Source: Mangrovicoccus sp. (GTDB lineage Bacteria; Pseudomonadota; Alphaproteobacteria; Rhodobacterales; Rhodobacteraceae). Taken from it: DNA of 64,000 nucleotides. Of the stretch, positions 7,892 to 41,954 are shown piece after piece (position 1 is the stretch's first letter; every line of letters starts with the position of its first letter). The notes below the pieces were generated by a model. The model saw only the letters and a program-made list of their open reading frames with translations, was not told the origin of the DNA and did no database searches. Made by a program: the position numbers and the translations under genes. The stretch covers positions 19,576-83,575 of the forward strand of contig JBMYSZ010000015.1 in the NCBI GenBank assembly GCA_049603835.1, read 5' to 3'.

Positions 7892-7946
7892 GGTGGGCTT
7901 AAGCCCACCCTACTCTTCGTGGTGTAGGGTGGGCAATTTGCCCACC
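7892..7946. repeat. Inverted pair of a REP-like palindromic element (GGTGGGCTTAAGCCCACCCTAC ... GTAGGGTGGGCAATTTGCCCACC)
   Basis: Two 22-23 bp palindromic units in opposite orientation in the rpoB-rpoC intergenic region. The same unit recurs at five other sites in the window. Confidence 0.6.
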
Positions 7947-16534: not shown

Positions 16535-16592
16535 GGTGGGCAAATTGCCCACCCTACCCAATCCCCGTAGGGTGAGCGCTTGAGGCTCACCG
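16535..16592. repeat. REP-like element (GGTGGGCAAATTGCCCACCCTAC) plus an adjacent degenerate inverted arm
   Basis: Perfect 23-bp unit followed by GTAGGGTGAGCGCTTGAGGCTCACC, in the fusA-tuf intergenic region. Confidence 0.55.
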
Positions 16593-18281: not shown

Positions 18282-19013
18282 ATGCGCTCCGGAATTATTG
18301 CGAAGAAAGTGGGCATGACCCGCTTGTTCCTTGAAGACGGCCGTCAGGTGCCGGTAACCGTTCTGCAGCTGGATGGCTTGCAGGTGGTTGCTCAGCGTAC
18401 CCCGGAAAAAGATGGCTATACCGCTGTTCAGCTGGGTGCCGGTTCTGCGAAAGCAAAACGCACCAGCCAAGCAATGCGCGGTCATTTCGCGGTGGCCAAT
18501 GTTGCGCCGAAGCGGAAGCTGGCGGAATTCCGGGTTGACCCGGAAAACCTGATCGAAGTGGGCGCCGAAATCTCGGCGGAGCATTTCGTTGCGGGCCAGA
18601 AAGTCGATGTTAGCGGCACCTCCATCGGTAAAGGTTTTGCCGGTGCGATGAAACGCCATAACTTTGGCGGTCTGCGTGCATCGCATGGTGTGTCCATCAG
18701 CCACCGTTCCCATGGTTCGACCGGTCAGTGTCAGGACCCGGGTCGTGTTTTCAAAGGCAAGAAAATGGCCGGCCATATGGGTGCTGCCCGTGTGACCACC
18801 CAGAATCTGGAAGTGGTGAAAACCGATGCAGATCGTGGCTTGATCATGGTCAAAGGCGCGGTTCCTGGCTCCAAAGGTGGCTGGGTCACTGTTAAGGATG
18901 CAGTTAAGAAGAAACTGCCAGACGGCGTGCCTTTCCCGGCGGCGCTGAAGGCTGTTGACGCTCCTGCTGCGGCCCCTGCCGAAGAAGCTCCGGCTGAAGG
19001 AGGTGCAGAATAA
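18282..19013 (+). CDS. rplC: 50S ribosomal protein L3
   Basis: 243 aa. [16 protein letters not shown]... is a typical L3 N-terminus. Confidence 0.95.
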
Positions 19014-19633
19014 TGAAAGCTCCTGTGATCAAATTGGATGCGGGCGAAGCTGGCGACATCGATCTGAACGAAGATGTTTTCGGCCTGGAACCGCGCGCTG
19101 ATATCTTGCATCGTGTTGTCCGCTGGCAGCGGTCGCGCATGCAGGCGGGCACTCACAAAGTGAAAACCCGTCGCGAGACCAGCTATTCCACCAAAAAGAT
19201 CGTTCGTCAGAAAGGCTCTGGCGGCGCACGTCACGGTGACCGGAATGCTCCGATCTTCCGTGGTGGTGGTATCTATAAAGGCCCGACCCCGCGGAGCCAC
19301 GCCCATGACTTGCCGAAGAAATTCCGCAAGCTCGGCCTGCGTCACGCTTTGTCGGCCAAGCAGGCTGCTGGTGAGCTGATCGTGATCGAAGAGGCGGTTT
19401 TGGCGGAAGCGAAAACCAAAGCTCTGTCCACCGCGGTGAAAAACCTCGGCTGGAAGCGCGCTCTGGTCATCGATGGTGCAGAAGTAAACGCAAATTTCGC
19501 AAAAGCAGCGGCGAATATCGAAGGTCTCGATATCCTGCCGAGCCAAGGTGCGAATGTTTATGACATCCTCAAGCGTGACACTCTGGTGCTCACCAAAGCA
19601 GGTGTCGAAGCGCTGGAGGCGCGCCTGAAATGA
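19013..19633 (+). CDS. rplD: 50S ribosomal protein L4
   Basis: 206 aa. Its start overlaps the rplC stop (TAATG). Confidence 0.95.
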
Positions 19634-19926
19634 GTGCAAAACCGGAGCATTACGACGTAATCCGTAAGCCGATCATCACCGAAAAAGCGACCATGGCCTC
19701 TGAAGCCAATGCGGTTGTTTTCGAAGTAGCGATCGACGCGGCGAAACCGCAGATCAAAGAAGCTGTTGAAGAGCTCTTTGGTGTGAAGGTGAAGGCGGTC
19801 AATACCACCATCACCAAAGGTAAGGTGAAGCGTTTCCGTGGCATGCTGGGCAAGCGTAAAGACGTTAAAAAAGCCTATGTGACCCTGGAAGAAGGCAACA
19901 CGATCGACGTATCGACCGGCCTTTAA
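19630..19926 (+). CDS. rplW: 50S ribosomal protein L23
   Basis: 98 aa. Its start overlaps the rplD stop (ATGA). Confidence 0.95.
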
Positions 19927-19937
19927 GCTTTGGCAGT

Positions 19938-19959
19938 GATGGGCAAATGCCCATCCTAC
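19938..19959. repeat. Single REP-like unit (GATGGGCAAATGCCCATCCTAC)
   Basis: Variant of the window-wide palindromic repeat, immediately 3' of rplW. Confidence 0.5.
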
Positions 19960-19970
19960 GCTTTTTGCAG

Positions 19971-19998
19971 CGCCTCCGCTTTTGCGGGGGCGTTTTGT
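19971..19998 (+). terminator. Terminator-like hairpin after rplW
   Basis: CGCCTCCGC-tttt-GCGGGGGCG followed by TTTTGTCT. Unexpected inside an S10 operon. Confidence 0.5.
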
Positions 19999-20125
19999 CT
20001 CATAAAGAGATTTCTTTGATTTTAGTGTATTCCTAATTTTGTGGAGCGTACATATTGGGGAGAAAGATCTCTAATTTGGACAAAGGGTTCTATTGAACCG
20101 AGCGCACGACGAAGGGAGGTAGACA

Positions 20126-20635
20126 ATGAACATCAATGCAGACCTCGCTGACCCCTCAGTACCAGTCTCCGATGCGTTGAACGTGGCTAATGAAATTCTG
20201 AAAATTGCAAAGCGCGAAGGTTTAGCTTTGACGCCTATGCAGTTAGTCAAGTTGACATATATCGCTCATGGATGGTCGCTTGCCATTCTCGAGCGTGATC
20301 TCTTTCAGGACCGGATTGAGGCTTGGAAATACGGTCCGGTTATTCCAGTGCTTTATCATGCTACAAAAAAATACGGTCGCGGAGTAATTCCTCTAGATTT
20401 AATAGATGAGGATACGCCGTCTCCCTTTGATGCCGATGTTACCGCATTGTTAGAAGATGTGGTGGCAAAATATGGGAACCTTAGCGGATACGCTTTGTCT
20501 AATTTAACGCACCGGGATGGAAGCCCATGGCAACAAGTGTTTAGGGAAGGTGTGATGAATATTCCCATAGGAGATGAAATTATCTCTCAGCACTATGGGG
20601 AGAAGCTCGATGCCTATAGACGTTCCACCTCCTGA
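20126..20635 (+). CDS. Panacea-domain (DUF4065 / COG3600 GepA-SocA-like) protein; putative PanA-type antitoxin or adaptor
   Basis: 169 aa. The strong SD GGGAGG lies 8 nt upstream. The segment ALNVANEILKIAKREGLALTPMQLVKLTYIAHGWSLAILERDLFQDRIEAWKYGPVIPVLYHATKKYG matches the conserved DUF4065 core (…ITNLKLQKLLYFAQGW…PLF.E.IEAW.YGPV.P.VY). Confidence 0.75.
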   Translation: MNINADLADPSVPVSDALNVANEILKIAKREGLALTPMQLVKLTYIAHGWSLAILERDLFQDRIEAWKYGPVIPVLYHATKKYGRGVIPLDLIDEDTPSPFDADVTALLEDVVAKYGNLSGYALSNLTHRDGSPWQQVFREGVMNIPIGDEIISQHYGEKLDAYRRSTS

Positions 20636-20960
20636 TGGTCCACTACCAGGACGTTGGGCGCAAGACGAAAGCGCTAGAAGAGAAAATCGCGACTGGGCGG
20701 ATGAAAGAAAATTAAGGGAAGCAAAGACATCGGCCGAGATTCTTTGGGCTAAATCCTACGGTTGGGCTATGATCGCGTTCCTAGCAGTGTTTTCGCTTCT
20801 TTTTTTGGGTAGTTTATCTGCCTGGTCACTTCATTACCTATTACCTGTCAAGTTTCATTGGTTGAGTTCTGATCAACTGTCAAAAGTTCAGTCTGTAATT
20901 TTTAGCGGAAGCCTTGGCGGTGTCGTGTCATTTGTTGCGCAAAAGCAATTGTCGAAATAG
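20610..20960 (+). CDS. Small single-pass membrane protein (toxin/effector candidate) overlapping the 3' end of the Panacea gene
   Basis: 116 aa from ATG 20610, with SD GGGGAGAAG 5 nt upstream. In-frame alternative starts lie at 20574 and 20595. It has a charged N-terminus, one hydrophobic helix (YGWAMIAFLAVFSLLFLGSLSAWSL) and a short C-terminal tail. The start overlaps the upstream stop by 26 nt. Confidence 0.55.
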   Translation: MPIDVPPPDGPLPGRWAQDESARRENRDWADERKLREAKTSAEILWAKSYGWAMIAFLAVFSLLFLGSLSAWSLHYLLPVKFHWLSSDQLSKVQSVIFSGSLGGVVSFVAQKQLSK

Positions 20961-21151
20961 CAAACCGCGTTCATAAAACTCCTAGACCCCCCTCTACCCA
21001 TCTGCTATTAGCGCCGGACCTAAACGGCCTCGGATTCGTTCCGGGGCCTTCTCTATTATAATTCGGGCACCTTCGGGGGCCTTTATTTGGGACCTGAGTC
21101 CGCGATCTCGCATCGCAAAAAAGGGCCCTCTAACAACGGAAGACAGAAACT

Positions 21152-21994
21152 ATGGCACTTAAGTCGTATAAACCGACGACGCCTGGCCAGCGTGGGCTGG
21201 TTCTGATCGACCGTTCGGAGCTTTGGAAAGGGCGCCCGGTCAAAAAACTCACTGAGGGTTTGACCAAATCGGGCGGTCGGAACAATACCGGACGGATCAC
21301 TTCTCGCCGTCGCGGCGGTGGCGCAAAACGCCTCTACCGTATCGTGGATTTCAAGCGTCGGAAATTCGATGTAGCGGCAACCGTCGAACGGATCGAATAT
21401 GACCCGAACCGGACCGCCTTTATCGCGCTGATCAAATATGACGATGGTGAGCAGGCCTATATCCTGGCACCGCAGCGTCTGGCGATTGGTGACAAAGTCA
21501 TCGCGGGCGCCAAAGCCGATATCAAGCCGGGCAATGCAATGCCGTTCTCCGGTCTGCCGATCGGGACCATCATTCACAATATCGAACTGAAGCCGGGCAA
21601 GGGCGGTCAAATCGCACGCGCTGCAGGCACTTACGCCCAGTTCGTTGGCCGTGATGGTGGCTATGCGCAGATCCGTCTGAGCTCGGGCGAGCTTCGCCTG
21701 GTCCGTCAGGAATGCATGGCAACTGTTGGCGCCGTGTCGAACCCGGATAATTCTAACCAAAACCTCGGTAAAGCTGGCCGTGTCCGTCACATGGGCAAAC
21801 GTCCGAGCGTTCGTGGTGTGGTTATGAACCCGATCGATCACCCCCATGGTGGTGGTGAAGGCCGGACTTCCGGTGGTCGTCACCCGGTTACCCCCTGGGG
21901 TAAGCCGACCAAAGGCGCGCGGACACGCGACACCAACAAAGCGTCGCAGAAGCTTATCATCCGCTCGCGTCACGCCAAGAAGAAGGGCCGCTAA
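21152..21994 (+). CDS. rplB: 50S ribosomal protein L2
   Basis: 280 aa. [17 protein letters not shown]... is a typical L2 N-terminus. Confidence 0.95.
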
Positions 21995-23824: not shown

Positions 23825-23836
23825 GCCTCTGCCAAT

Positions 23837-23942
23837 GATGGGCATATTGCCCATCCTACGAAATTGACCCCCGTCGTTACTTTAGCGGCGGGGGTTTTTT
23901 AATGTCGCGGATAGTGGGAGTAGGATGGGCATTTTGCCCATC
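23837..23942. repeat. Inverted pair of REP-like units bracketing a terminator
   Basis: GATGGGCATATTGCCCATCCTAC (23837-23859) and GTAGGATGGGCATTTTGCCCATC (23920-23942). Confidence 0.6.
23868..23900 (+). terminator. Rho-independent terminator immediately after rplP
   Basis: CCCCCGTCG-ttactttag-CGGCGGGGG followed by TTTTTT. Confidence 0.7.
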
Positions 23943-23987
23943 ATTGCCGTGAGATCGCGCGGCGGTTGATGCTCACCACGAAAAGCT

Positions 23988-24455
23988 TTAGCCGAGGCAG
24001 AGTGTGGTTTTCTGCGCCTGGCAGGCGGCGATCCGGTGCGGATAAGCGGCGCGATAGTCGTCTAGCTCAAACAGTGCCAATAGCGCTTCGGGATTTGGAT
24101 AGGTGCCAATCGCCACCAAATCCCAATCTTCTTCGCCGCCGATAAAGCTAGCTCCAAATGGCGCCACGAGCAAAAACCGGCCGCCAATTTTTTCGAGGCT
24201 CGGCATGCTCACCGCTGCATAGCGCTGGAACGCGTCTTGCCCCGAAACCGCCGCTGCATCCGCAGGATCACTCCCTGCAGGATAGGCTGCGATCCCTCGC
24301 ATTTTAAAGAAATTCACTAGGGTCACCGGCTGATCTTCGGGCAAGTCTATCAGCTCTGCCCAGGCGGCTTTATTGGGTAAGCCAACGCCCTCATCCCCCC
24401 ATTTGCCTAGGATAGCCTCAATACGTGCGGCGCGGTTTTGCGATGTCGAATTCAT
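23988..24455 (-). CDS. DUF1330-domain protein
   Basis: About 156 aa from MNSTSQNRAARIEAILG. Motifs PVTLVNFFKMRG...FQRYAAVSMPSLEKIGGRFL...EDWDLVAIGTYPNPEALLALFELDDYR fit the DUF1330 profile. The ORF-track N-extension is not supported. Confidence 0.55.
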   Translation of the reverse strand: MNSTSQNRAARIEAILGKWGDEGVGLPNKAAWAELIDLPEDQPVTLVNFFKMRGIAAYPAGSDPADAAAVSGQDAFQRYAAVSMPSLEKIGGRFLLVAPFGASFIGGEEDWDLVAIGTYPNPEALLALFELDDYRAAYPHRIAACQAQKTTLCLG

Positions 24456-24580
24456 GCGTCTCGTCTCCAAAAACTTCCGCCCCTCATGAGCGGTTGCGCA
24501 ACACCTATTGGCAAAGTACATATTCACAAGTAGGCAATTATTTTTGGGGTAGTACGCTTTTTGGTACTATTGGAGGCCGC

Positions 24581-24952
24581 ATGACCCAGCAAACCCAACA
24601 AAACCAGCCCGCCATTCCGGCAACTGCGGCCGGTATGTGTCAGCTGCCATGTCCCATGCCCGATATCGTTTCCCTGGTGGGCGGCAAATGGAAACTGATC
24701 ATCCTGCAAATTTTGGTCTTTGACGGCACGCAGCGTTTCGGTGAACTCAAGCGCCGCCTTGAGGGTGTCAGCCAAACCATGCTGACCAATCAGCTCCGTG
24801 GGTTAGAGGCAGATGGGCTGGTCTTCCGCAAGGTCTATGCCGAAGTGCCGCCGCGGGTCGAATATAGCGCCACGCCCTTGGCCCAGGATATGCAGCCGGT
24901 TTTCTTCGCCTTGCGCGATTGGTGGAAACGAAACCATCCTGAGCCGAAATAA
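24581..24952 (+). CDS. HxlR-family winged-helix transcriptional regulator
   Basis: About 123 aa from ATG 24581 (SD GGAGG at 24572). CPMPDIVSLVGGKWKLIILQIL...TQRFGELKRRLEGVSQTMLTNQLRGLEADGLV matches the HxlR fold. It is divergent from the DUF1330 gene. Confidence 0.7.
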   Translation: MTQQTQQNQPAIPATAAGMCQLPCPMPDIVSLVGGKWKLIILQILVFDGTQRFGELKRRLEGVSQTMLTNQLRGLEADGLVFRKVYAEVPPRVEYSATPLAQDMQPVFFALRDWWKRNHPEPK

Positions 24953-25060
24953 ATAAAGTAAGTTTCGAATTTAGCCATTAATGCCGCATTTCTCTTCACA
25001 TTGTTGGCGTGGTAATTGTTTTGACACCCCTCCGCGCTGCAGAAGAGAGCTCTGATTTCC

Positions 25061-26059
25061 ATGACAGTTTATGCGATTAATGGCCTTGGCCGCATGGGGA
25101 AGCTGATGCTGCGCCCCTTCCTAGAGCGCGGCGGTGAGCTGGCTTTTCTCAATGATCTGAACGCCACACCGGAGATGATCGCGCATCTGCTAGAATTCGA
25201 CACGATCCATGGTCGCTGGCCTGCGGAATTCGGTTTTGATGAAAACTCGATCCAGATTGATGGCCTGAAACTGCCGCTGCTCAATGAGGCGCGGATAGAA
25301 GATCTGCCACTTGACGGCGTCGATGTGGTGATCGATTGCACCGGCGTTTTCAAATCCGAAGCCAAGCTTGCCGCTTATTTCGCCGCCGGGGTGAAGAAGG
25401 TTGTGGTCTCCGCTCCGGTCAAAGACGGCCCCACGGCGAATATCGTCTATGGCGTCAATCAGCACATTTATGATCCGGCCGAACATCAGATCATCACTGC
25501 CGCAAGCTGCACAACCAATTGCATCGCGCCAGTGGTGAAGGTTCTGCATGAAGAGATCGGTATCAAACACGGCTCGATCACGACCATCCATGACGTGACC
25601 AATACGCAAACAATCGTGGATAAGCCCGCCAAAGATCTGCGCCGGGCGCGCTCTGCGATGAATTCCTTGATCCCTACCACCACCGGTTCGGCCACGGCGA
25701 TCACCTTGATCTATCCCGAGCTGACGGGGCGTCTGAATGGCCATGCGGTCCGGGTGCCTTTGCTCAATGCCTCGCTCACCGATTGCGTTTTCGAGATGGA
25801 GCGCGAAGTAACCGTCGAAGAGCTGAATGCCCGGTTCAAAGCGGCTGCAGAGGGGCCTTTGAAAGGGATCTTAGGATATGAAGAGCGACCGCTTGTTTCG
25901 GCGGATTACGTAAATGATCCGCGTTCGGGGATCGTCGATGGATTGTCCACAATGGTGGTCAATGGCACCCAAGCCAAGATCTATGTCTGGTATGATAACG
26001 AATGGGGCTATGTGTATCGCCTGGTCGATGTGGCGATGATGGTGGGGGAGGCGCTTTAA
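25061..26059 (+). CDS. gap: Type I glyceraldehyde-3-phosphate dehydrogenase-family protein (likely a second, accessory copy)
   Basis: 332 aa with a Rossmann N-terminus (INGLGRMGK), the catalytic SCTTNC motif and the C-terminal WYDNEWGY. Confidence 0.75.
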
Positions 26060-26110
26060 GCGCCGCCGCTCGGGTTTGGGCCAGGGGCCTCTAAGGGGCT
26101 AAGGGGGGTC

Positions 26111-27480
26111 TCAGGCCATTTGCGCCATGGATTGTGGGGCCGGGGCGCGCCGCCGCTCTGGCATGCGCCGTCTCTGCCGGGGCCGCGCTGTCCCCGCCGG
26201 GCTTGACCCGGCGGCTCTTTGCCCAGGGGTTTCGCTATAGCCTTCCGACAGGATCTGGGCAAAGACCCAATTCATTAGCGCCATGCCAGAAGCCGAAGCC
26301 AACACCAAAGGCAGGCCGCCAATATAATAGCTCAGCCCCGAAAGCAGCGTGCCAATCAAACGCCCCGCCGCATTGGACATATAGTAAAAGCCTACATCCA
26401 TGGCGGCGCGATCATCCTTGGTAAAGGCGAGGATGAGATAGGAATGCACCGAGGAATTCACCGCAAAGATCGCCCCAAAGATCAGCAGCCCCACCACCAG
26501 CACCGCAGTGAGCCAGCCCACCGGCCCGCCAGCGAGTAGCGCGGCAATGGTCAGCGCCACTGGCACAGTTACCAAAATCCCTGCCCAGCGGCGTGCCAAT
26601 TGGACAACGTCCTTTAGCTCTTTATCCTTAGCTTTCAGGAATTTCGGCGCATAGGCCTGCACCGCCCCATAGCCCACCAGCCATAGTGCCATAAAGGCGC
26701 CGATCATGAAAAAGGCCATGCGCATTCCTGGCACGGTGCCATCGCTTAGCACCTGATAGAAATAGGCGGGGATCCCGACCACAAACCAGGCATCGCGCGC
26801 GCCAAAGAGGAAAACTCGGGCGGCGGAGAGAATATTGATATTGCGATCCTTGGAAAAGACCTCTTGGAATTTCGCCGATTTTCGCCCAGTGGGCAGACCG
26901 CGCGGCATAAAGCTAAAGACCAGGCTCAACACCACGGCGAGGGCCACGGCCATGGAAAGCGTCGCCCCGGTAAAACCCAAAAGCGCCAGCAGAGCAGCGC
27001 CAAGCAAAAAGCCCAGCCCCTTCACCGCATTCTTTGAGCCGGTCAGCGCGGCGACCCATTTGAACAGCGCGCCTTTCTCTTCCTTTGGTGCCAGCAATTT
27101 CACCGCGCTTTTAGAGCTCATCTTGGTGAGGTCTTTCGCAACCCCGGCGCAGCCCTGCACCACCATCACAAAAGCGACGGAGGCCCAAAGCGCCCAAGCC
27201 GGGTTGAGCTGGGCCAGGGCAAGCAGAGCGCCGATTTGCAGCACAAGCCCCGCATAAAGCGTGACCGTCAGGCCAAACCGCGCGGCGAGCCATCCCGCGG
27301 TCAGATTGGTCACCATGCCCATGAATTCATAGAGTAAGAACATGAAAGCCAGCTGCACCGGGCTGAAGCCCAAAGTCTCAAAATGTAGCAGCACCAGCAT
27401 GCGCAAAGCGCCATCGGTGAGCATAAAAGCCCAATAGGCCGCCGTCACGGCAATATAAGCGGCAACAGGATTATGGTCGC
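26111..27480 (-). CDS. MFS transporter (true start uncertain)
   Basis: The C-terminal ~430 aa of the 657-aa ORF (from ...NPVAAYIAVTAAYWAFMLTDGALRMLVLLHF) form a 12-TM MFS-like core. The Ser/Arg/Pro-rich N-terminal extension is unlikely to be translated; the real start is probably a GTG or TTG near 27,400-27,500. Confidence 0.5.
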
Positions 27481-28209
27481 CGCGTCCATGCAGACGATCT
27501 TTCAGCGATGATTTTTGCGGCTGCGTGCTGGTCGCGCCTTCGCCCTTATTCGATAGGAAAGACAGCTTATCCGCGAAGGGGTTGGCCGGGCCGAAGCCGA
27601 ATTTTGCGGCGCTAGAAAGAGCGGCAAGGCCGAGACATAGCCCAATAAAGGCCAGGCCTGCTTGCTGCACCGAGGTGGAAAAAATGGCGACGGTTGAGAT
27701 GCCAAAAGCCACAACCGTCGTCCAAAGCGCGGAGCTTGTCCAAAAGCTGCTGCTTGTCTTTGCTTCGGCTCCCGCATCAGGCTTTGGCGTCCAGACTAGG
27801 GGAGGGAAGGCATAGCTCCGGCCATTCTTTGTCGCGTCCAGGCTACGCCAGCTGGGGCGCAATTTCGTGCGCGGCTTGGGGCGATCGACCGAGATTGTCC
27901 GCCCTTTGAGCTCGTGCAGCGACACAGAGGACTGACGCGAAGCTGTCGATGCGGCGGGCCTTGTCTGGGTAGGTTCGGGCACCTGCTTGCGATAGCGCTT
28001 TGGCGGGACACGGCGAGACATTTTTGAGGCGGCGCGAGATGCAGACATAGGGGAACTTCGAAAATCGTGATCAATTCGCCCCAATTTAGCCCGATAACTT
28101 TCGAAATGACTACTATTATATCCCGAATATTTTGCAGATCTTGGCAGATTGCGGCGGGAATGTTACCTAGCGCCAATGCGAATGCGGAGCTTTGAGGTAG
28201 CAAGCGGTA

Positions 28210-29529
28210 GTGTCTTCAGCGTCTTCAGTGGCTGCGGTTTGGCCAGCGAAAGAAATTTGGCTTTTGGCCCTGCGCGGCGGCGCTTCGGTGCTCAATGGCA
28301 TTTTGGCGGCCCTCGCTTTGCGGGCCTTCCCCGATCTTGATGCTATCGCCCGGCTTTCGCCTATTTTTATTCTTTTTGTAGCCATCGCACTGCTCACCGA
28401 TAGCAATCTGCGAGAGATGCTGCATGGGCATGTGGTGCTGGATTGGGTTAATCGCCGCTATGACGCTCTCCGGGCGGAAATTTCCCAGGCGCCCAAAGGG
28501 ATTGCCGCGCTTCGGGCGGTCAATTCTGGGGATCCCGTGGCGCTGACGGGCCATGTGGCGCTGGCGCTCAATAGTGTCTTTGCGATTTTAGCAGTGCTGG
28601 CGGGGCTCGCGATTTTATCGCGGGCGGCCTTTATTTTGCATCTGCTGGCCGTGGCGGTGATTGCGGCGATTTTATTTGTGGCATGGCTGGAAAAGGGCTT
28701 TGCCGCGCGGCTATCGGCTTGGCCGCATCTGCTGCCGAGCTTGGCTCTGGTCACGACGATCTTGCAGGTTTTCTTGCTGCCCGCGCTTTTGCCTGGCACC
28801 TCGACCGAGATTTTGGCCGGTTGTGCGATCCTTTCCCTGGCCATGGCTTTGCCGATCACGCGGATTGCCGATTTGCCCGAAAGCTTTGCGCTTCTGCGCG
28901 ATTTGCACCAACTGCCCCAGGGGGGGGACGATACGGAAACTCAGCCACCGCCACCGCCGCTTGGTTTTTCGGTCGATGGGCAAAGCTTTGGCGCGGGGGA
29001 TTGCCTGGTGATCCATTGCCGAACTGCGGTGCAGCAGCGTCAGATTATGCGTGGTTTTTCCGGGTCAGAGCCTTTGCCCAGCCATGTCGCCCAAGATCTT
29101 GGAGCCCAGGATAGCGCCATGGACGTGGCGCGGATTGCCCAGCAAACAGCCCCGGTTTTCGCCGATCCTATGCCATTCGTGCCGCCCATCACCGCAAGCG
29201 CTGCGCCGATTGCCTTGGGTCCGCTTGCCCATGCTTTGGAGTTGCCCGAAGATATCCTGACTTGGCCCGGCGGCTTTTTGCATCTGGAGGATGCTGTGCC
29301 AGGACCGGGGCTATTGGGCGCTATTTGCGATCCGCGTCCAGTGATCTTAGCGGAAATGCCAAAACGCTTTTTCGGGCCCACAGAGGCGGTGAAACGTCGG
29401 GCTTTGCTGGCAGCGGCGGCGAAATCCGGCAAGGTGCTGATCTGTGTCACCCATGGCGCCGCGCCGCCCGAGCCTAAGGGGGCGAAATTTTTGCTCATCG
29501 ATCTCACCCAAAAGGCCGCCCAGCCATGA
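28210..29529 (+). CDS. Hypothetical protein: N-terminal multi-TM domain plus a C-terminal soluble domain with degenerate ABC-NBD-like remnants
   Basis: 439 aa with a hydrophobic N-terminal half. The C-terminal half shows faint ABC-ATPase-like strings (GDCLVIHCRT..., KRRALLAAAAKSGKVLICVTH) but no Walker A motif. Its stop overlaps the next start (ATGA). Confidence 0.4.
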   Translation: MSSASSVAAVWPAKEIWLLALRGGASVLNGILAALALRAFPDLDAIARLSPIFILFVAIALLTDSNLREMLHGHVVLDWVNRRYDALRAEISQAPKGIAALRAVNSGDPVALTGHVALALNSVFAILAVLAGLAILSRAAFILHLLAVAVIAAILFVAWLEKGFAARLSAWPHLLPSLALVTTILQVFLLPALLPGTSTEILAGCAILSLAMALPITRIADLPESFALLRDLHQLPQGGDDTETQPPPPPLGFSVDGQSFGAGDCLVIHCRTAVQQRQIMRGFSGSEPLPSHVAQDLGAQDSAMDVARIAQQTAPVFADPMPFVPPITASAAPIALGPLAHALELPEDILTWPGGFLHLEDAVPGPGLLGAICDPRPVILAEMPKRFFGPTEAVKRRALLAAAAKSGKVLICVTHGAAPPEPKGAKFLLIDLTQKAAQP

Positions 29530-30374
29530 GCCCGCTTTTCCTGCTTTGGCGCATGATCACCGCCCAGCCGCGTATCGGGATCGTTTTGATCTTTCTGTCC
29601 ATCGCGGCGGCTCAGGTGCATGCCACGCTGCTTTTGCTGATCGTGACGAAAATCGCTGGGCTGCTCGACTTGGCTGACCGCTCTGTCACGCTTTGGATGC
29701 CGCTGCTCACGGGGCTCGCCAGCGTCGCGCTAGAAATCTTTGCGGGCTATTTCTCGCGGGTGTTTGCGACGGATCTGGAAGAAAAGCTCGACTTGCCCAA
29801 ACCGATCCTAGAAGAGCATTGCCGCTTGTTGCGCATCGCCTGCGCTTTGGCCTCGATCCTAGTGATGCTGTTTGTGTTCAATTGGGGACTGTTTTTGGCG
29901 GGAACTGTTTTACTGGCCTCGCTTTTGCGGGCGCTTTGGCGCGCAACGAATGAAAGCAAACCTGCCATGGAAGAGCAAAGGCGCGCGCAAGCGGTGATCG
30001 ATGAGAGCCTAGCGCAAATCGCCCAAAGCCCCGATACGGTGCGGGCCTATCCCGAAGCTGTGCGCGACATGCTGGGGCAAAGCATACGGGCCGATTTCAT
30101 CGCCGAGGGCCAGCGCGTACATGCGGCCAGCAAAGCCGGGGGGCGGCTGGGCTTCTGGTCGTTATTTCGCTGGTATATCGTGGTCTTTGCGGCGCTTTTC
30201 CTGTTGCCGCAATATGGGCTGAGCCCTCCAACTGTGCTGATCCTTTTGGCCTATCAATTGGTGTTGCTGGATCAATTCTCTAGCCTTTATCTCGCCCAAG
30301 CGCGGCGGATTGAGGCAGGGTCGCCAATGGAGCAAGAGATTTGGCAAGAAGTTGAGACATTCTTTGTTCGCTGA
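29526..30374 (+). CDS. ABC exporter transmembrane-domain-like protein (MsbA-like N-terminal TMD, no ATPase domain)
   Basis: 282 aa. DRSVTLWMPLLTGLASVALEIFAGYFSRVF closely resembles the MsbA TMD segment DRSVLVWMPLVVIGLMILRGITSYVSSY. Translationally coupled to the upstream ORF. Confidence 0.5.
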   Translation: MSPLFLLWRMITAQPRIGIVLIFLSIAAAQVHATLLLLIVTKIAGLLDLADRSVTLWMPLLTGLASVALEIFAGYFSRVFATDLEEKLDLPKPILEEHCRLLRIACALASILVMLFVFNWGLFLAGTVLLASLLRALWRATNESKPAMEEQRRAQAVIDESLAQIAQSPDTVRAYPEAVRDMLGQSIRADFIAEGQRVHAASKAGGRLGFWSLFRWYIVVFAALFLLPQYGLSPPTVLILLAYQLVLLDQFSSLYLAQARRIEAGSPMEQEIWQEVETFFVR

Positions 30375-30490
30375 TTGATTTTTAGCTAGCCTTAGGTCAA
30401 TGATTTGTTGAAAAGCGCTTTGTTGATCCTCTGGCATCATACAAAGTGCAGGGGCCATGAGGGCCCGATCTGATTTGGGCCAGACTTAAG

Positions 30491-31204
30491 GTGATTTCTA
30501 TGGCACGAACCACAAAGACGACCGGCACAAATGCTGACGAGACCGCAACCGACAAGGTTGAAGCGGTAAGCTCCGAAACCGAGGCCGAAGCTACAACCAG
30601 CGACGCGGCAAGCGCGGATGACAGCAAGGATGTTGTGGCTATGGACACCGCCGAGAGCGCGGAAGAGGCCAGCAGCGACGACATGGTTGAGCTGCCCTCG
30701 CAGGTTGAGATCGATAATCTGATCAAAGGCTATGTCATTGCCTCTATGGCCTCTGCGGCGATTCCGGTTCCGCCTGCCGATACGGCGGCGATCATCGCGA
30801 CCCAGGTGAAAATGATCCATGGCCTGGCCAAGCTTTATGATGTGCCATTCACCCGTGGCATCGCGCAAAATCTGGTTGTTTCGCTGATCGGCGGTGTTGC
30901 GCCTTTGGCGGTGACTATGGGCGTTGCGAGCCTGGCGAAAACCGTACCGGTGATCGGCACTTTTGGTGGCATGTCGGGCATGGTGATTTTGGCGGGCGCC
31001 TCTACTTATGCAACCGGCCAAGTTCTGGTGCATCACTTTGAGAATGGCGGCACTTTGGTGAATCTGGACACGGCGAAAATCCGCGAGGAATATCGCAATC
31101 AGCTGCGCAAAGGCAAAGAGCTGACCCGCCGTCTACGCGGCAAATCTGCCGAAGCGACCGCAGCAGAGAGCGTTAGTGCTGAGGGCGAGGCCCAGCCCGC
31201 CTAA
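30491..31204 (+). CDS. DUF697-like membrane-associated protein with an acidic low-complexity N-terminus
   Basis: 237 aa. The central region (KGYVIASMASAAIPVPPADTAAIIATQVKMIHGLAKLYDVPF...LIGGVAPLA) resembles the DUF697/YcjF C-terminal domain. Confidence 0.4.
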   Translation: MISMARTTKTTGTNADETATDKVEAVSSETEAEATTSDAASADDSKDVVAMDTAESAEEASSDDMVELPSQVEIDNLIKGYVIASMASAAIPVPPADTAAIIATQVKMIHGLAKLYDVPFTRGIAQNLVVSLIGGVAPLAVTMGVASLAKTVPVIGTFGGMSGMVILAGASTYATGQVLVHHFENGGTLVNLDTAKIREEYRNQLRKGKELTRRLRGKSAEATAAESVSAEGEAQPA

Positions 31205-31231
31205 TCCCGCCCTTTTGCGGAAGTTATCGTT

Positions 31232-32770
31232 TTGCGTGTGACCAAAGAAGATGTGAGCCCTCGGCGGAAGAAACCTGCTCCGCCGAGCTCTTGGCGCGAG
31301 CGACTGCATCGGATAGGGCGCGCCTTTAGCCGGATCTCTTTGGCGGTGGTGGTTCTCTTTTTGCTGCTGCTGGCTGCGATTTATCCGGCGGTGGTGCGGG
31401 TCGTCCCTGCCGGTGCGGCGGGGGTGATTTATAAGCCCCTGCGCGGCGGGACAGTGACAGACCGGATCTTTGGTGAAGGGGTCCATGTCAAATATCCTTG
31501 GGATACGCTTTACGTCTATAATACCCGGATCCAAACGATCCTGCATGATTTCACGGTTCTGACCAATAAGGGCCTGCCGGTCACGCTGCGCCTGGCGATC
31601 CGGTTTCATCCCGAGCGCGAGATGATCGGGCGGCTGCATAAGCAGGTTGGTCCGAATTACGCCGAGACGATTATTGTCTATCAGATCGAGTCTGTGCTCA
31701 GGAAACGTCTGGGCAAGGAAGACCCCGAAGACATTTACACCAATCGCTCGGGCACGCTGACGGATGTCTTCGAAAATGCGATTGAGGAAGTGGGCCAGCG
31801 CTATGTGCGCATCACTGATGTGATCATCCGCGAAATCGTGTTGCCAAGCCAGGTTGTGGCAGCAATCGAGGAAAAGCTGGTGCATCAGCAAAAGCTTGAA
31901 GCCTATGAGTTCCGCTTAGAAACCCAAGCCCGCGAGGCAGAGCGGATGCGGATCGAAGCGGCGGGGATCCGCGATTATCAAGCAACCATCAATGAAACCC
32001 TGAGCAAAGATCTGATCGTTTGGCAGGGGGTGAATGCAACGGTTGAGTTGGCGCAATCGGATAATGCCAAAATCGTGGTGGTCGGCTCGGGCGATAAGGG
32101 GCTGCCGGTGATTTTGGGCGCGGATAGTTTTGCCACTGGCCCAGAGGGGACGGGTGGCGGAGCGGGCTTGGCTGGCCCCGGCGCGGCGGTGGCCGCAAAT
32201 GCGGCGTCTGCGCCTGCGCCTGCGCCTGCGGAGCCCGGCGGAGCTGGGGCTATGGTGATGTCTCCCGATTTGCGTCTCTCCAGCGCCGCGCTTCCCCCGA
32301 TGCAAGAGCAAGTCCAAAGTCCGGTATCAGAGCCGGTGCCGCAGCAATCGCCCCGCCCTGGTCTAGAGCCGCTGCCGCAGCTTTGGGCCTTTTTGCCGCC
32401 CTTCCTGCAACCCAAAGAGGGGCCCGTGCCAAGCCAAGATCCAGCCGCGCCGCGCGCTGCACATGAGGCGGTGCCCTATGTCAGCGCGGCCGAGCAAACC
32501 GGCGCGACAGCTGCGGCGGGCGTCAACTCATACGGGCCGATGCGCCGCTATTCGCCTCTTGCGGGTGAAGCCATGCCGCCCTTTGTGTCGATCTTCCAGC
32601 GCCGCTATTCCCTGCCGCTCGATCCGGTCTTTGATCCGCATGCGCAAAATGGCAGCCCCGTCGCCGGGCGTTTGGGGCCAACCAGTCAGCACACAGCGCG
32701 GGCGCAGATTGGCAAACGCGGCTTGATTGCGGCGGAATTCCTGCAAAATCCATCTGATATTCTGCCATGA
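31232..32770 (+). CDS. SPFH/band-7 (prohibitin/HflC-like) domain protein with a long Pro/Ala-rich C-terminal tail
   Basis: An N-terminal TM helix followed by an SPFH core (VVRVVPAGAAGVIYKPLRGGTVTDRIFGEGVHVKYPWDTLYVYNTRIQT...). The C-terminal ~200 aa are low complexity. Confidence 0.6.
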   Translation: MRVTKEDVSPRRKKPAPPSSWRERLHRIGRAFSRISLAVVVLFLLLLAAIYPAVVRVVPAGAAGVIYKPLRGGTVTDRIFGEGVHVKYPWDTLYVYNTRIQTILHDFTVLTNKGLPVTLRLAIRFHPEREMIGRLHKQVGPNYAETIIVYQIESVLRKRLGKEDPEDIYTNRSGTLTDVFENAIEEVGQRYVRITDVIIREIVLPSQVVAAIEEKLVHQQKLEAYEFRLETQAREAERMRIEAAGIRDYQATINETLSKDLIVWQGVNATVELAQSDNAKIVVVGSGDKGLPVILGADSFATGPEGTGGGAGLAGPGAAVAANAASAPAPAPAEPGGAGAMVMSPDLRLSSAALPPMQEQVQSPVSEPVPQQSPRPGLEPLPQLWAFLPPFLQPKEGPVPSQDPAAPRAAHEAVPYVSAAEQTGATAAAGVNSYGPMRRYSPLAGEAMPPFVSIFQRRYSLPLDPVFDPHAQNGSPVAGRLGPTSQHTARAQIGKRGLIAAEFLQNPSDILP

Positions 32771-33978
32771 GACGGCTGCGCTATATTGCATCCGTGCTGG
32801 TGATCGCGGTGATGGTGCAAATTTCGGGGCTCGTGGATCTGGGCCTGCGTCTTGGCTCGCAAAGCCTGACCCTGCCGCGGCTGCCCGAGCCGGATTTCCC
32901 TGAGCCCGGCGAGAGCTGGATGATTGGCGTCTATTATTACGAGGCTCTGCATCCCGGATTTCTTGCGGGCGCAGAGCTGGCCGAGGCGGAGATCAATGCC
33001 AAGGGCGGCATTTTGGGACGCCCCATCAAGATCAAGGCGGTGGATGAAGCTGGGTTTTCGGAACGTGCCGAAGAGCGCAATCTAGCCGCCCGGCGCCATT
33101 TCGATCATGATCGAGTTTTGGCGGTGATGGGCGGGTCGTCAGATCTGATTATTCGTAATGCCTCGGATTGGTTTGACGATCTTGGGATCCTCTATTTCAA
33201 TCCGCTCTTTCCGCTGTCCAATGTGGGCAATCCAGGCAAGCCCTATGTCTTTGCCACGATCCCCGATCGCGAGCGGATCGGCGATAACCTGGCCCAAGCC
33301 ATGAGCGAAATGGGGGCAACGCGCATCGCGATTGTGGCAAGTCGGGAGCGGGCCGCGCAAGAGATCCGGCATTCGATCCAAGATATTGCCCCGAGCCTGG
33401 CTTTAGACGTGGTGGCGGATCTGGGTATGGCAGGGGCGGATGCCAGTTATATCGACGAGCTGGTTCGCCTCAGCTCGGCCCAGCCCGAGGCGATTGCGCT
33501 TTTGCTGCCCAAAGCCGAACGCGAGGTGTTTTTGCGCCAAGCCGCTCGGATGAAGCTGAATGCGCCGATTTTCTTAGGCCATCCGGAGGGGATCGTGCCA
33601 TGGGCCGAGGATTTCGCGGGGCTCACCGCAACGGAATGGCCAGAACTGGAACTGTGGCAGGCGGAACCGCTGGAAAATCCACGCGCCGATAGGGCCGGGC
33701 TGTCACGCTTTCAAACCAGCTATCAGAGCCGCTTTGATCAAGCTCCGAGCTATTGGGCCGCCCAAGGATATGATACTTTGCGGATGATCGCGCAGGTGGC
33801 GGAAGAGATTGGGTCGGATCACCCGCTCCAGATTGCCACGGCGCTGAATACGCAAACCGCCTGGACAGGCATTACCGGCCCGCATTCTTTCACCAATTCG
33901 GGTCGGATCTATACGAAGGACTGGCCTTATGGGCCGCTGCGCCTCACAGATTTGGCGCGTAACACTCTAAGCCATTGA
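32767..33978 (+). CDS. Periplasmic substrate-binding protein, LivK/branched-chain amino acid-binding (type 1 PBP) family
   Basis: 403 aa with an N-terminal signal anchor. WMIGVYYYEALHPGFLAGAELAEAEINAKGGILGRPIKIKAVDEAG is typical of Leu/Ile/Val-binding proteins. Its start overlaps the SPFH stop (ATGA). Confidence 0.55.
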   Translation: MRRLRYIASVLVIAVMVQISGLVDLGLRLGSQSLTLPRLPEPDFPEPGESWMIGVYYYEALHPGFLAGAELAEAEINAKGGILGRPIKIKAVDEAGFSERAEERNLAARRHFDHDRVLAVMGGSSDLIIRNASDWFDDLGILYFNPLFPLSNVGNPGKPYVFATIPDRERIGDNLAQAMSEMGATRIAIVASRERAAQEIRHSIQDIAPSLALDVVADLGMAGADASYIDELVRLSSAQPEAIALLLPKAEREVFLRQAARMKLNAPIFLGHPEGIVPWAEDFAGLTATEWPELELWQAEPLENPRADRAGLSRFQTSYQSRFDQAPSYWAAQGYDTLRMIAQVAEEIGSDHPLQIATALNTQTAWTGITGPHSFTNSGRIYTKDWPYGPLRLTDLARNTLSH

Positions 33979-33987
33979 GAGGCAGCT

Positions 33988-34173
33988 ATGATCATCGTCA
34001 AAGCGCATATGATGCCAGCAATTTTGATCTATCTTAGCATTTGCGGGGTGATCGGGCTGATGGGGCGGCGCAGAAAGCTGGGGGGCTGGGCGTATTTCTT
34101 TGCCTCGATCTGCCTGACGCCGTTGATTGGCTTTCTGCTCATCTCCGCATCGGATCCGCGTCCGCGATGGTGA
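33988..34173 (+). CDS. Small two-TM membrane protein (PLDc_N-like)
   Basis: 61 aa with AGAGG 7 nt upstream. GWAYFFASICLTPLIGFLLISAS resembles the PLD-nuclease N-terminal small membrane domain. Its stop overlaps the next ATG (ATGGTGA). Confidence 0.35.
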   Translation: MIIVKAHMMPAILIYLSICGVIGLMGRRRKLGGWAYFFASICLTPLIGFLLISASDPRPRW

Positions 34174-34961
34174 GAGCCTGGGCTTTTGGCGCGGCGCTTT
34201 TGGCAAGCCTGCCAGGTGCGGCATTGACGGAGACCCGGCGCGATCATGTGAAGCTGGCAGTGCCTTTCGCGCTGTTGCCTTATGCCCAGGCCGAGGCGAG
34301 CGCCTTTGCGGCAGAGCATCCGTTTAAGTTTCCCGAACTGCTTTCAGCGCGGGATTCGGCTATGCCATGGCTTTTTTGCCGGGGCGGGGTTTCTGATAGC
34401 CCGGATATGGGCCTGGCTTTTGCGCCGCTAAGCGCAGAGATTTCGGAGCTTTGCGCGACTTTTGGCAAAACCGATCTGACCCAGATGGCGGGCGGGGGGA
34501 TGCAGCTTTCGGCTTTTGCTCTGACCTCGCGTGATTTGGCGGGGATCGATTTGGCTGAGCTTGATTTGGCAGAGCTGAGCGCGGGGGATCTGTCTTGGCA
34601 GGATCTGCGGAGCGATCTGCCCGATGCGCCTTTGCGCTTTTATTTGCCAGGGGATGCGGCGCGGCTGGCTTTTGCTCAGGCCTTAGCAGAGCAATGTTCG
34701 CAGGAGGAGGGCTGCGCCTTTGAGCAAAGCCTGGCCAGCTATGAAAGCTTGCGCCGCCCGGAGGATCTGGATCCGAATGGGATCTATTTTATACCCGGCT
34801 CGGGCGCGGTGCAGCTGATCGGCTGGAGCCAGCTAGAGATCCAGCCTCAGATCGAGTTGCCGCTATATCTTTGGCTCAGAACCGAGCGGATTGAGACAGT
34901 AATTGGGGCAAAGCCGGCTGTGAAAGCATTGGCCCTTTGCGGCGGTGACAGTGCCTGTTGA
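34167..34961 (+). CDS. Hypothetical secreted protein
   Basis: Signal peptide MVRAWAFGAALLASLPGAALT, translationally coupled to the upstream small ORF. No recognisable domain, and the sequence is Asp/Leu-repetitive. Confidence 0.3.
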   Translation: MVRAWAFGAALLASLPGAALTETRRDHVKLAVPFALLPYAQAEASAFAAEHPFKFPELLSARDSAMPWLFCRGGVSDSPDMGLAFAPLSAEISELCATFGKTDLTQMAGGGMQLSAFALTSRDLAGIDLAELDLAELSAGDLSWQDLRSDLPDAPLRFYLPGDAARLAFAQALAEQCSQEEGCAFEQSLASYESLRRPEDLDPNGIYFIPGSGAVQLIGWSQLEIQPQIELPLYLWLRTERIETVIGAKPAVKALALCGGDSAC

Positions 34962-34969
34962 GCCCGAGC

Positions 34970-34992
34970 GGTGGGCCAATTGCCCACCCTAC
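34970..34992. repeat. Single REP-like unit (GGTGGGCCAATTGCCCACCCTAC)
   Basis: Near-perfect copy of the consensus palindrome. Confidence 0.5.
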
Positions 34993-35058
34993 ATTGCCTT
35001 CGCCATTAGCTCTGCTTGCGGCAGGCCTTAAACTTTGGGATAGGGGCCTCGCCTGGTT

Positions 35059-35700
35059 TTGCCCATAGGAGGTCCATCAATGGCCGAGATTGAATCGCTT
35101 TTTGTCACCCGCCTTTACCGCGCAGCTTTAACGGAATTCGGCGATACAATCGATCCGCAAGAGCTAGAGGCGTCTTGCTTTTCTATCGCCGAGGATGATG
35201 AGGCGGGCCAAGACTGGTGCGAGGAGAATGGCTATCCCGGCTATACGTCTTATGCCTCGCTCACGGATTTGCCCTGGCGCTTTCCAATTTTCGCCGATGT
35301 GGTGGCGGCGCTTGATAAACATGTGGCCGAATTTGCCAAGGATCTGGAATTCAATCTTGATGGCCGCGACTTGAAGCTCGAAGATCTGTGGATCAATATT
35401 CTGCCCGAAGGCGGTATGCATAGCTCGCATCTGCACCCGCATTCGGTGATCTCTGGTACGACTTACGTGTCTATGCCGAAAGGCACCAGCGCGCTGAAAC
35501 TGGAAGATCCGCGCTCGGGCCGGATGATGGCCGCGCCGGCCCGGATCAAAGACGCCCGGCGGGAGCTGCGGACCTTTGTCTATGCAGAGCCAAAGGCTGG
35601 CGATGTGCTGCTTTGGGAAAGCTGGCTGCGCCATGAAGTGCCGATGAATATGGCGGAAGAAGAGCGGGTCAGCGTCAGTTTCAACTACGCTTGGGCTTAA
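35059..35700 (+). CDS. TIGR02466-family putative 2OG-Fe(II) oxygenase-like protein
   Basis: 213 aa. LFVTRLYRA... at the N-terminus, with HLHPHSVISGTTYVSMP...WLRHEV...VSFNYAW matching the conserved family architecture. Confidence 0.55.
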   Translation: MPIGGPSMAEIESLFVTRLYRAALTEFGDTIDPQELEASCFSIAEDDEAGQDWCEENGYPGYTSYASLTDLPWRFPIFADVVAALDKHVAEFAKDLEFNLDGRDLKLEDLWINILPEGGMHSSHLHPHSVISGTTYVSMPKGTSALKLEDPRSGRMMAAPARIKDARRELRTFVYAEPKAGDVLLWESWLRHEVPMNMAEEERVSVSFNYAWA

Positions 35701-36298
35701 CGGGCACCCGCTTTGCCACTTCGCTGACTGTGGAATGGGCCAGATCGCTGGCCATGACCACAAAGATCAGCAAGGTCGATCCGGCAAAGGCAACGGTCAG
35801 GTTCAGATTTGCGGTCAGGCTAAGCCAATCCGTGTCGACTTTTGGCGATACGCTTTGGAACAGGCAAGAAAAGGTCGCATAGCCTAGGATAAGGTGGCGT
35901 ATGGCCCAGGTTTGCTTGCTTCGGGGCAGAACCGAGCGGCACAGCATATATGCCAGCGCTAAGGCCGATTGCACACAGAAATACAGCACCGGATGTGCGC
36001 GGGGCGCGTCGTCAAAGGCAAAGAAATGCCAGGGAAAGGCAAGGGCGCATCCCAGCGGGAAGAAGAGCAATACGAGGGTGGTCAGTTGTTTGCGGGTGGC
36101 ACAGATCTGGGCCGAGCGGGCGACAGCGGCGATGCCATGGATCCAACCGCCGATCCCCACAAAGGCCATGGCGACCGCAAACAGGCCCGCACCTTTATAG
36201 ACCACCGCCATGCGCGAGGCGAGATTGAGAAAGCCCATGACCGAGAAGGTGGTCAGGACCCATTTCGTATCTGGGCGAGATATCAGCTGCTGCAACAT
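35681..36298 (-). CDS. Hypothetical polytopic membrane protein
   Basis: 205 aa, hydrophobic throughout. Convergent with the TIGR02466 gene. Confidence 0.35.
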   Translation of the reverse strand: MLQQLISRPDTKWVLTTFSVMGFLNLASRMAVVYKGAGLFAVAMAFVGIGGWIHGIAAVARSAQICATRKQLTTLVLLFFPLGCALAFPWHFFAFDDAPRAHPVLYFCVQSALALAYMLCRSVLPRSKQTWAIRHLILGYATFSCLFQSVSPKVDTDWLSLTANLNLTVAFAGSTLLIFVVMASDLAHSTVSEVAKRVPVKPKRS

Positions 36299-36387
36299 GG
36301 CCGCTCTGGTGCCTCAGTCGGGCGTCGGTTACAAGGCTACAGAGCGCGCAGAGCCGCTTGACTGAATGGGAAAAGCTAGTGCGGTGC

Positions 36388-41878: not shown

Positions 41879-41954
<76 letters not shown>

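Follow-up and report, generated by a model that had tools for sequence, protein, structure and literature searches.

Toxin-antitoxin (TA) systems consisting of a PanA antitoxin and a PanT toxin were defined by Kurata et al. in 2022, and three membrane toxins were validated in that work (PMC8832971). Within the T12 cluster of these systems, the Bartonella apis toxin is neutralised by PanA and causes strong depolarisation together with SYTOX uptake, which was read as the formation of large pores; the listed T12 members, which include Aggregatibacter phage S1249, have an antitoxin-toxin order with overlaps of -14 to -29 nt (PMC8832971). Mutation of the YGPV motif inactivates a validated PanA, and neutralisation by PanA requires neither ClpXP nor Lon (Kurata et al., PMC8832971). 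The stand-alone Panacea protein of the Bartonella system neutralises directly, through contact with the N-terminal region of the toxin, and the mutations Y56A and H120E abolish neutralisation in this PanA (Ernits et al. 2023, PMC10440598). A sensory role has additionally been proposed for Panacea, and ten NetFlax systems were non-toxic in E. coli (PMC10440598). Here we describe a module of this kind in a 64,000-nucleotide stretch of Mangrovicoccus sp. DNA (contig JBMYSZ010000015.1, positions 19,576 to 83,575; hereafter the window), in which two open reading frames, ORF1 (panA) and ORF2 (panT), occupy an AT-rich island between the ribosomal protein genes rplW and rplB of the S10 cluster. With a probability of roughly 0.8, we interpret this island as a horizontally acquired type II PanA-PanT cassette that resides in a pre-existing, lineage-wide cargo slot.

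The panA gene (20126..20635, + strand) encodes a stand-alone Panacea-domain antitoxin of 169 residues. A hidden Markov model search of ORF1 against PF13274 (SocA_Panacea) returns a match over the complete profile (positions 1-113 of 113) with an E value of 2.9e-18 and 67.3 bits versus a cut-off of 25.7, which bears out the assignment to the Panacea family made in an earlier reading of the same DNA from its letters alone (the sequence-only reading). The PHROGs family phrog_1281 matches ORF1 at 2e-38. The YGPV motif is located at residues 69-72, and a TH dipeptide at residues 128-129 is common to ORF1 and the PanA of phage S1249. There are 598 homologues of ORF1, with a top identity of approximately 70%, and 179 phage records match it; a PDB sequence search with ORF1 gave no match. 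The best NCBIfam match is SocA (NF047745), with a score of 94.3 bits that lies under the equivalog cut-off of 190, and the identification of ORF1 as a SocA orthologue was rejected on this basis. Upstream of the gene, the AT-rich 5' region of the cassette (19999..20125, + strand; GC 0.43-0.45) ends in a strong Shine-Dalgarno sequence, AGGGAGG, and is presumed to contain the panAT promoter and operator, a sigma-70 consensus scan having given none there.

The panT gene (20610..20960, + strand) encodes a small protein of 116 residues and overlaps panA by 26 nt; the island holds the Shine-Dalgarno-equipped two-gene operon that had been described for it. The start is best placed at the ATG at 20610 rather than at 20574, in agreement with the NCBI annotation and with all homologues. 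Searches of ORF2 against Pfam, NCBIfam and PADLOC gave no match, and the best PHROGs match has an E value of only 0.2. Judged from its conservation, ORF2 is nevertheless a real protein: the family alignment A1, which comprises 17 close homologues, contains 21 invariant columns, and 700 cluster representatives, almost all of them 110-135 residues long, are retrieved by a profile search at E <= 1e-3. The AlphaFold2 model of the ORF2 monomer (a single-chain prediction with a predicted local distance difference test score of 82) contains helices at residues 20-77 and 87-115. Together with the hydropathy profile, the model suggests a charged N-terminus, a transmembrane part at approximately residues 49-77 of the long first helix, a short conserved linker (HY..P...W.WL) and a Gly/Ser-rich second helix (87-115).

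The family alignment, the predicted structure, the hydropathy and a profile match together identify ORF2, as far as these comparisons reach, as a T12-family PanT, a small membrane toxin. The T12 protein of phage S1249 (YP_003344835, D11S_2262) scores 28 bits with the A1 profile of 17 sequences and 72 bits with a broad ORF2-family profile of 149 sequences, and it is retrieved with an E value of 7e-24 in a three-sequence search; the motif HY.LP..WH.L...QL aligns between the ORF2 family and this protein. Pairwise tblastn of ORF2 versus phages reaches an E value of approximately 2 at best. A related pair is found in temperate phages of P. aeruginosa, where PanA is 53% identical to ORF1 and the downstream protein of 129 residues scores 58 bits on the ORF2-family profile. 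This pair is located at L112:2501-3344 in Pseudomonas phage vB_Pae_CF183a, with a further 13 records of related P. aeruginosa phages; the record examined (H16) lacks an annotation of the PanA gene and gives an antisense open reading frame in its place. A homology of ORF2 with the PanT of the E. coli phage (presumed T3, the cluster being unconfirmed) was rejected, as scores of 2.5-6 bits do not constitute a match. The sequence-only reading had held that this pairing of genes was not characterised; because ORF2 falls in T12, a cluster with a validated Bartonella PanT, the pairing has in fact been characterised already.

The two genes are also conserved as a pair. An ORF2 homologue was recovered together with its upstream DNA at 27 other loci: 23 in metagenome contigs, three in assemblies and one in a viral contig from IMG/VR. 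At each of them, the gene that directly precedes it, in the same orientation, encodes a Panacea protein, in accordance with the PanAT-type architecture of antitoxin followed by toxin that had been proposed from the letters. The wider contexts of these 27 pairs are unrelated: the neighbour is an insertion sequence (IS)-like gene in Jannaschia formosa and a phage-type integrase in Cohaesibacter, and metabolic genes surround the pair elsewhere. Since the pairing is maintained throughout these unrelated contexts, Panacea and ORF2-type genes appear to travel as a unit; none of the 27 loci lies between rplW and rplB. The Jannaschia formosa locus is peculiar in that an ORF of 72 residues (L001:4323-4541) abuts the start of panA and the IS-like gene follows panT, an arrangement that may point to a form of the module with three genes or with an associated IS.

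The island differs sharply in composition from its surroundings. The source contig belongs to a metagenome-assembled genome (MAG) of Mangrovicoccus sp., in which rplW (ribosomal protein L23; 19630..19926, + strand, an ORF call) forms the left flank and rplB (ribosomal protein L2; 21152..21994, + strand), directly followed by rpsS, rplV, rpsC and rplP, forms the right flank. The gap between them is 1225 bp and holds the two overlapping genes. Across positions 19997-20983, the GC content is 0.450, the lowest value among 631 overlapping segments of 987 bp (mean 0.567, standard deviation 0.028), and the GC content at third codon positions is 0.44 in ORF1 and 0.385 in ORF2 versus 0.57-0.69 in the adjacent ribosomal protein genes. 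The island is thus compositionally foreign, and the separation of rplW and rplB by some 1.2 kb of AT-rich DNA is as had been noted; every sequence feature listed at that time was found at or near its assigned place.

The same junction was compared in the rplW regions of the 80 genomes closest by RplW, a phylogenetically unbalanced sample in which all members are Rhodobacterales except for one probably mis-binned contig. The RplW of the window is 87-95% identical to that of these genomes, and its RplB is 87-97% identical to that of the relatives. Two loci ending too soon after rplW were set aside, which leaves 78 informative loci. The spacer is compact (93-181 bp) in 15 genomes, expanded and measurable (265-3423 bp) in 47, and so long in 15 others that rplB is not reached within approximately 4 kb; in one genome, the contig ends after 925 bp of cargo. 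An expanded spacer (265 bp to >4 kb) is consequently present in 63 of the 78 genomes, and the length varies from 93 to 3423 bp over the 62 genomes in which it was measured, to which the 15 genomes with more than 4 kb are to be added. At the six other S10 junctions (rpsJ to rpsC) of the same loci, the distance is never greater than 164 bp. The junctions downstream of rplB are 11 bp or less. The exceptional contig (L083, JBLXCH010000168.1) is labelled as a MAG of Motiliproteus, a member of the Gammaproteobacteria; its region is of the Rhodobacterales type (RplW 90% and RplB 97% identical), has the same hairpin and leader as the window and is probably mis-binned.

These counts alter the view of the site. 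In the sequence-only reading, the insertion point had been considered highly unusual on the assumption that rplW and rplB are adjacent in relatives, an assumption contradicted by the 63 expanded spacers with their varied cargo. The accompanying expectation that the island would be absent from relatives proved correct for the module, as the 80 relatives have no Panacea or T12-family gene at a distance of up to 4 kb from rplW, and incorrect for the junction, at which most of them carry other cargo.

The cargo comprises 114 ORFs (heuristic calls) that fall into 98 clusters. On the strands, 46 ORFs are + and 22 are -, such that about a third run antisense to the operon. Several of the encoded proteins are related to phage defence. 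Full-length matches were obtained for SoFic (2e-95; L022:2985-4247) in another Mangrovicoccus MAG, for AbiU (8e-186; L053:5126-6811) in Ruegeria sp. ANG-S4, and for the AbiP2 reverse transcriptase (3.7e-188; L069:4592-6148). A fragment of the OLD family (L030:4593-5792), a SIR2/ThsA-like protein adjoining a ParA-like ATPase (L061:3210-5116), a Ser/Thr kinase of the PD-T4-6/mad6 type (L074:5654-6898) and a Schlafen-AlbA protein are also among the slot cargo. Ordinary accessory genes, including those of a fatty-acid desaturase, DUF2200, transporters and regulators, are common, and no recombinase was found, either in the cargo proteins that were scanned one by one or in the 25 commonest of 85 Pfam families. 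Proteins of one family, 183-214 residues long, are encoded in the slot of several Ruegeria species and of one MAG each of Phaeobacter and Mangrovicoccus (L022:2282-2884, L053:4375-4926, L057:4375-4926, L063:3262-3813 and L067:3772-4416). The gene is the first after rplW except in the Phaeobacter locus (L067), and the one member scanned individually (L022) has no Pfam match; the family appears to be a semi-conserved occupant of this position.

The left edge of the slot is marked by two hairpins. A repetitive extragenic palindromic (REP)-like unit, GGGCAAATGCCCATCCTAC, forms a hairpin between rplW and the terminator (19941..19959, + strand; -15.3 kcal/mol, z = -3.8), and similar units are present in the same spacer of relatives. 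This unit belongs to a REP-like host family, GGCAAATTGCCCAYCCTAC, with nine copies in the 64 kb versus 0.22 expected, often as inverted pairs; copies elsewhere in the window are located at 7895-7942, 16539-16576, 23841-23938, 34974-34992 and 36392-36442. The second element (19970..19998, + strand) resembles an intrinsic terminator and would close the rpsJ-rplW unit: a GC stem of 10 bp is followed by UUUUGU, and the hairpin itself (19970-19992) has a predicted energy of -21.6 kcal/mol (z = -4.6). A terminator-like hairpin with a T-run occurs at most 110 nt after the rplW stop codon in 60 of 64 occupied sites, the window being counted. The REP unit and terminator had therefore been placed correctly upstream of the island, but they are native to the slot and not parts of the island itself.

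The right edge of the occupied sites has a constant order of a promoter-like element, a hairpin and the RNA family RF03142. In the window, the candidate promoter for rplB (20983..21011, + strand), for which conservation among relatives is the evidence, consists of TAGACC and CTATTA separated by 16-17 nt. The occupied sites have TTGACC, TAGACA or TTGCCA at -35 and CTAAAC, CTATAC or TTACAC at -10, at a fixed distance of approximately 15 nt to the downstream hairpin. An origin of this promoter region as a duplicated 3' end of rplW, as would be expected of a duplicative insertion, finds no general support, since local alignment against shuffled sequences gave z scores of approximately 0 in most cases and of 2.9-4.4 only for L070, L009 and L082.

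The conserved hairpin at the start of the rplB leader, GGCCTCGG-ATTCGTT-CCGGGGCC (21026..21048, + strand), has a predicted energy of -18.6 kcal/mol (z = -4.7). Its pairs were counted by a custom script anchored on a loop of 6 or 7 nt; in all 44 distinct sequences, the form GGCCYCGG-ATTCGT(T)-CCGGGGCC has an invariant loop and a stem of 7 bp or more, and compensatory changes from G-C to A-T are found at three stem positions. This hairpin could serve as an attenuator or a protein-binding site. A T-rich run often follows it, and the stem is kept in most compact sites, with other loops. Next to it lies the L2-Alphaproteobacteria ribosomal protein leader (Rfam RF03142; 21065..21149, + strand), which scores 48.1 bits versus a gathering score of 37.8 and immediately precedes rplB, at compact as well as occupied sites, in 16 of the 20 relatives tested.

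Where the site is compact, a GC-rich hairpin comes immediately after the rplW stop codon; a second hairpin comes next, and then a conserved AACGGAAGACAGAAAGC just before the rplB ATG. In the three compact loci that can be aligned on the hairpin loop (L066, L025 and L049), a -35 sequence (ATTGAC) and a -10 sequence (TAATAG) fall inside the last codons and stop of rplW, within its last ~35 nt; a promoter for rplB would thus be embedded in the rplW coding sequence in these genomes.

Taken together, the arrangement suggests a separate transcription unit for rplB. An intrinsic terminator after rplW would split the S10 cluster in most Rhodobacterales, and rplB-rpsS-rplV-rpsC-rplP would restart from a promoter of their own, with the 5' hairpin and the L2 leader. 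Given a terminator before and a promoter after it, the DNA between them could be exchanged with no interruption of ribosomal gene expression. The module had been described as embedded inside one transcription unit, such as the E. coli S10 unit that runs from rpsJ to rpsQ, a description with which the terminator-like hairpin after rplW and the conserved promoter-like element before rplB are difficult to reconcile. Both the promoter and the terminator activities are predicted here from sequence features.

An alternative, which takes up a question of the sequence-only reading, retains the single operon: the module would be wired into S10, rplB would be transcribed by read-through, expression of the TA genes would be coupled to ribosome synthesis, and the context would stabilise the module. 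The cassette does have the orientation of the operon, no terminator is found between the panT stop codon at 20960 and the promoter region and leader of rplB, and the sigma-70 consensus scan of 19400-21400 detected no promoter. In the absence of a terminator at this point, panAT transcripts may enter the rplB leader, and some coupling is possible. However, the hairpin and U-run before the island recur in nearly all occupied sites, and the promoter-like element, the hairpin and RF03142 precede rplB in compact and occupied genomes alike. In addition, relatives have antisense cargo and spacers of more than 4 kb at this junction, which renders a dependence on read-through implausible. The comparative evidence thus favours an internal promoter for rplB over read-through, and we consider the wired-in arrangement unlikely.

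If the cassette acts as its homologues do, PanT would sit in the inner membrane and, when free, would depolarise and permeabilise it, and PanA would counteract the toxin by attaching directly to its hydrophilic N-terminal part. The two genes overlap by 26 nt, which suggests coupled translation from one mRNA, with the antitoxin made before the toxin. PanT would then be freed if PanA were lost or inactivated, or if the Panacea domain sensed a trigger, as proposed by Ernits et al. The biological role is most likely phage defence or selfish maintenance; the single-gene abortive-infection systems that fill the same slot in relatives would favour defence.

The pair might instead not be a strict TA system. 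ORF2 would then be a harmless membrane partner, for instance an anchor or a superinfection-exclusion or holin-like protein, and the Panacea protein would be a phage-associated sensor, with both acting only during infection. The wide distribution of Panacea in temperate phages is compatible with this possibility, as seen in the phage records that match ORF1 and the P. aeruginosa phages with an ORF2-like gene after panA, and the proposed sensory role and the non-toxic NetFlax systems point in the same direction. However, the T12 cluster includes a proven toxin that is neutralised by a stand-alone PanA, and the strict antitoxin-toxin order of adjacent, co-directional and overlapping genes is what a classical type II system shows. 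This alternative therefore appears quite improbable. Finally, the MAG origin of the window and the sharply different composition of the island might suggest an artefact of assembly or binning, but this is extremely improbable because an independent Logan contig (L004, run SRR27204692, 2609 bp, with Pfam Ribosomal_L23 recorded on its copy of rplW) is 100% identical to positions 18623-21231 across both junctions, many isolate genomes among the relatives, including complete chromosomes, carry cargo at this exact junction, and the flanks are in the correct order and orientation with the native terminator and leader intact.

Several points nevertheless weigh against the interpretation of the island as a PanA-PanT cassette in a lineage-wide slot, in addition to the terminator-free stretch before the rplB leader, the empty sigma-70 scan and the unbalanced genome sample. 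The link to the validated Bartonella toxin (WP_077993242.1) is indirect, as it passes through the co-clustered phage S1249 protein, and the toxicity, neutralisation and complex formation of the pair are presumed by homology. In PADLOC-DB v2, neither ORF1 nor ORF2 matches a model at E <= 1, which bears on the defence role. The promoter regular expression, which 39 of 47 occupied sites match versus 0.4% of random windows of sequence, was built after the fact on the alignment on which it was counted. Moreover, no integrase, transposase or target duplication that would point to a mechanism of insertion was found: direct and inverted repeats around the island are short matches at chance level only, with no target duplication.

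This lack of a signature bears on how the cassettes are exchanged. The simplest route would be recombination within the conserved flanks, given that neither a recombinase nor flanking repeats were found at the site. We tentatively propose, at somewhat less than even odds, that the rplW-rplB spacer is an undescribed, family-wide insulated slot with rapid cassette turnover, in which cassettes would be exchanged via homologous recombination between the nearly invariant ribosomal genes on either side. The particles of gene transfer agents, which are common in Rhodobacterales, package roughly 4 kb, and a whole cassette together with both flanks would fit into one of them. No paper on an rplW-rplB hotspot, on S10 insertions in Rhodobacterales or on TA modules in ribosomal operons was found in a search with most subscription journals outside its coverage, which makes this weak evidence of novelty.

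The occupied junction has several implications. The genes rplW and rplB, usually deemed inseparable, are routinely split in a major marine bacterial order, and a hypervariable collection of defence and accessory genes is housed at the interruption. The slot also gives a rationale for a dedicated L2 leader, which was rated uncertain by its discoverers, and offers a fixed locus with a highly conserved gene on each side, addressable by polymerase chain reaction, for sampling the diversity of defence genes in Roseobacter-group populations. For annotation, foreign genes that appear to be embedded in an operon should be judged against the operon structure of the lineage.

A second break of the S10-spc cluster is present in the same window, a further sign that the cluster can be interrupted in this lineage. 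Between rplP, which ends at 23824, and rpmC (36596-36802), followed by rpsQ (36807-37037) and rplN (37116-37484), lie 12.8 kb (23825-36595) with genes of host-like GC content, including those of GAPDH, an MFS transporter, a Band 7/SPFH protein and a periplasmic binding protein. Two of the REP-like pairs listed above (23841-23938 and 36392-36442) stand at its edges, and seven compact relatives have rplB and rplN too close together to accommodate an insertion of this kind. Elsewhere in the window, a Rhodo-rpoB cis-regulatory RNA (RF03074, 49.6 bits) is located at 3634-3722, and three tRNA genes are located at 41882-41954 (-), 43173-43244 (-) and 44473-44546 (+).

A comparison with described elements places both the slot and its cargo. 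RF03142 is described as an L2 leader candidate rated "?" (Eckert and Weinberg 2020, PMC7247131), and the regulated genes given in the retrieved part of that description (rplB, rpsS, rplV and rpsC) agree with the gene order of the window. The Rfam model omits the upstream covarying hairpin and the promoter-like element, and the retrieved part of the original description makes no mention of a variable cargo region (PMC7247131).

Hotspots for defence genes and integration that are flanked by core genes have been catalogued for E. coli and other species. The rplW-rplB slot shares with such chromosomal defence islands its fixed core flanks, its highly variable content and the presence of several unrelated anti-phage systems. 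It is unlike typical hotspots in that its flanks are adjacent S10 genes, its measured cargo does not exceed 3.4 kb, and it is bracketed by a terminator-like element on one side and a promoter-like element and leader on the other; furthermore, no integrase is present among the cargo ORFs examined in detail, and ordinary accessory genes are mixed in.

With SocAB of Caulobacter, the type VI TA system that founded the Panacea/DUF4065 family, the module shares the Pfam domain of the antitoxin. SocB is a soluble DnaN-binding toxin that is degraded by ClpXP with SocA as the adaptor. An identity with SocAB was rejected, as ORF1 lies below the SocA threshold and ORF2, judged by the description of SocB, is instead a membrane protein. 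The PanAT system of E. coli (T3; PanA and PanT of phage PhiR47_1) is closer in kind, as it likewise combines a Panacea protein with a membrane toxin that has a charged N-terminus and C-terminal transmembrane helices and is validated as pore-forming. However, the E. coli PanT has 182 residues and undetectable similarity to the ORF2 family, and the E. coli PanA is only approximately 36% identical.

The two-gene order of the window is also that of D11S_2261/2262 in Aggregatibacter phage S1249 and of the P. aeruginosa phages (vB_Pae_CF183a and relatives). These phage copies sit in prophage accessory regions, whereas no phage genes, integrase or att site are present near the copy in the window. The described system that most resembles the module is the PanA:PanT pair of Bartonella apis/choladocola (T12; node D11 in Ernits et al. 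2023), in which a stand-alone Panacea gene is likewise located upstream of a small toxin gene. The Bartonella toxin and ORF2 are both approximately 115-125 residues long with a charged N-terminal region and C-terminal transmembrane helices, and the genes overlap or nearly abut in both cases. The sequences are divergent, and the present pair, to which activity is ascribed by analogy, differs in its Rhodobacterales host and its site between rplW and rplB. The module is thus a further member of a known TA family that combines PanA with a T12 membrane toxin.

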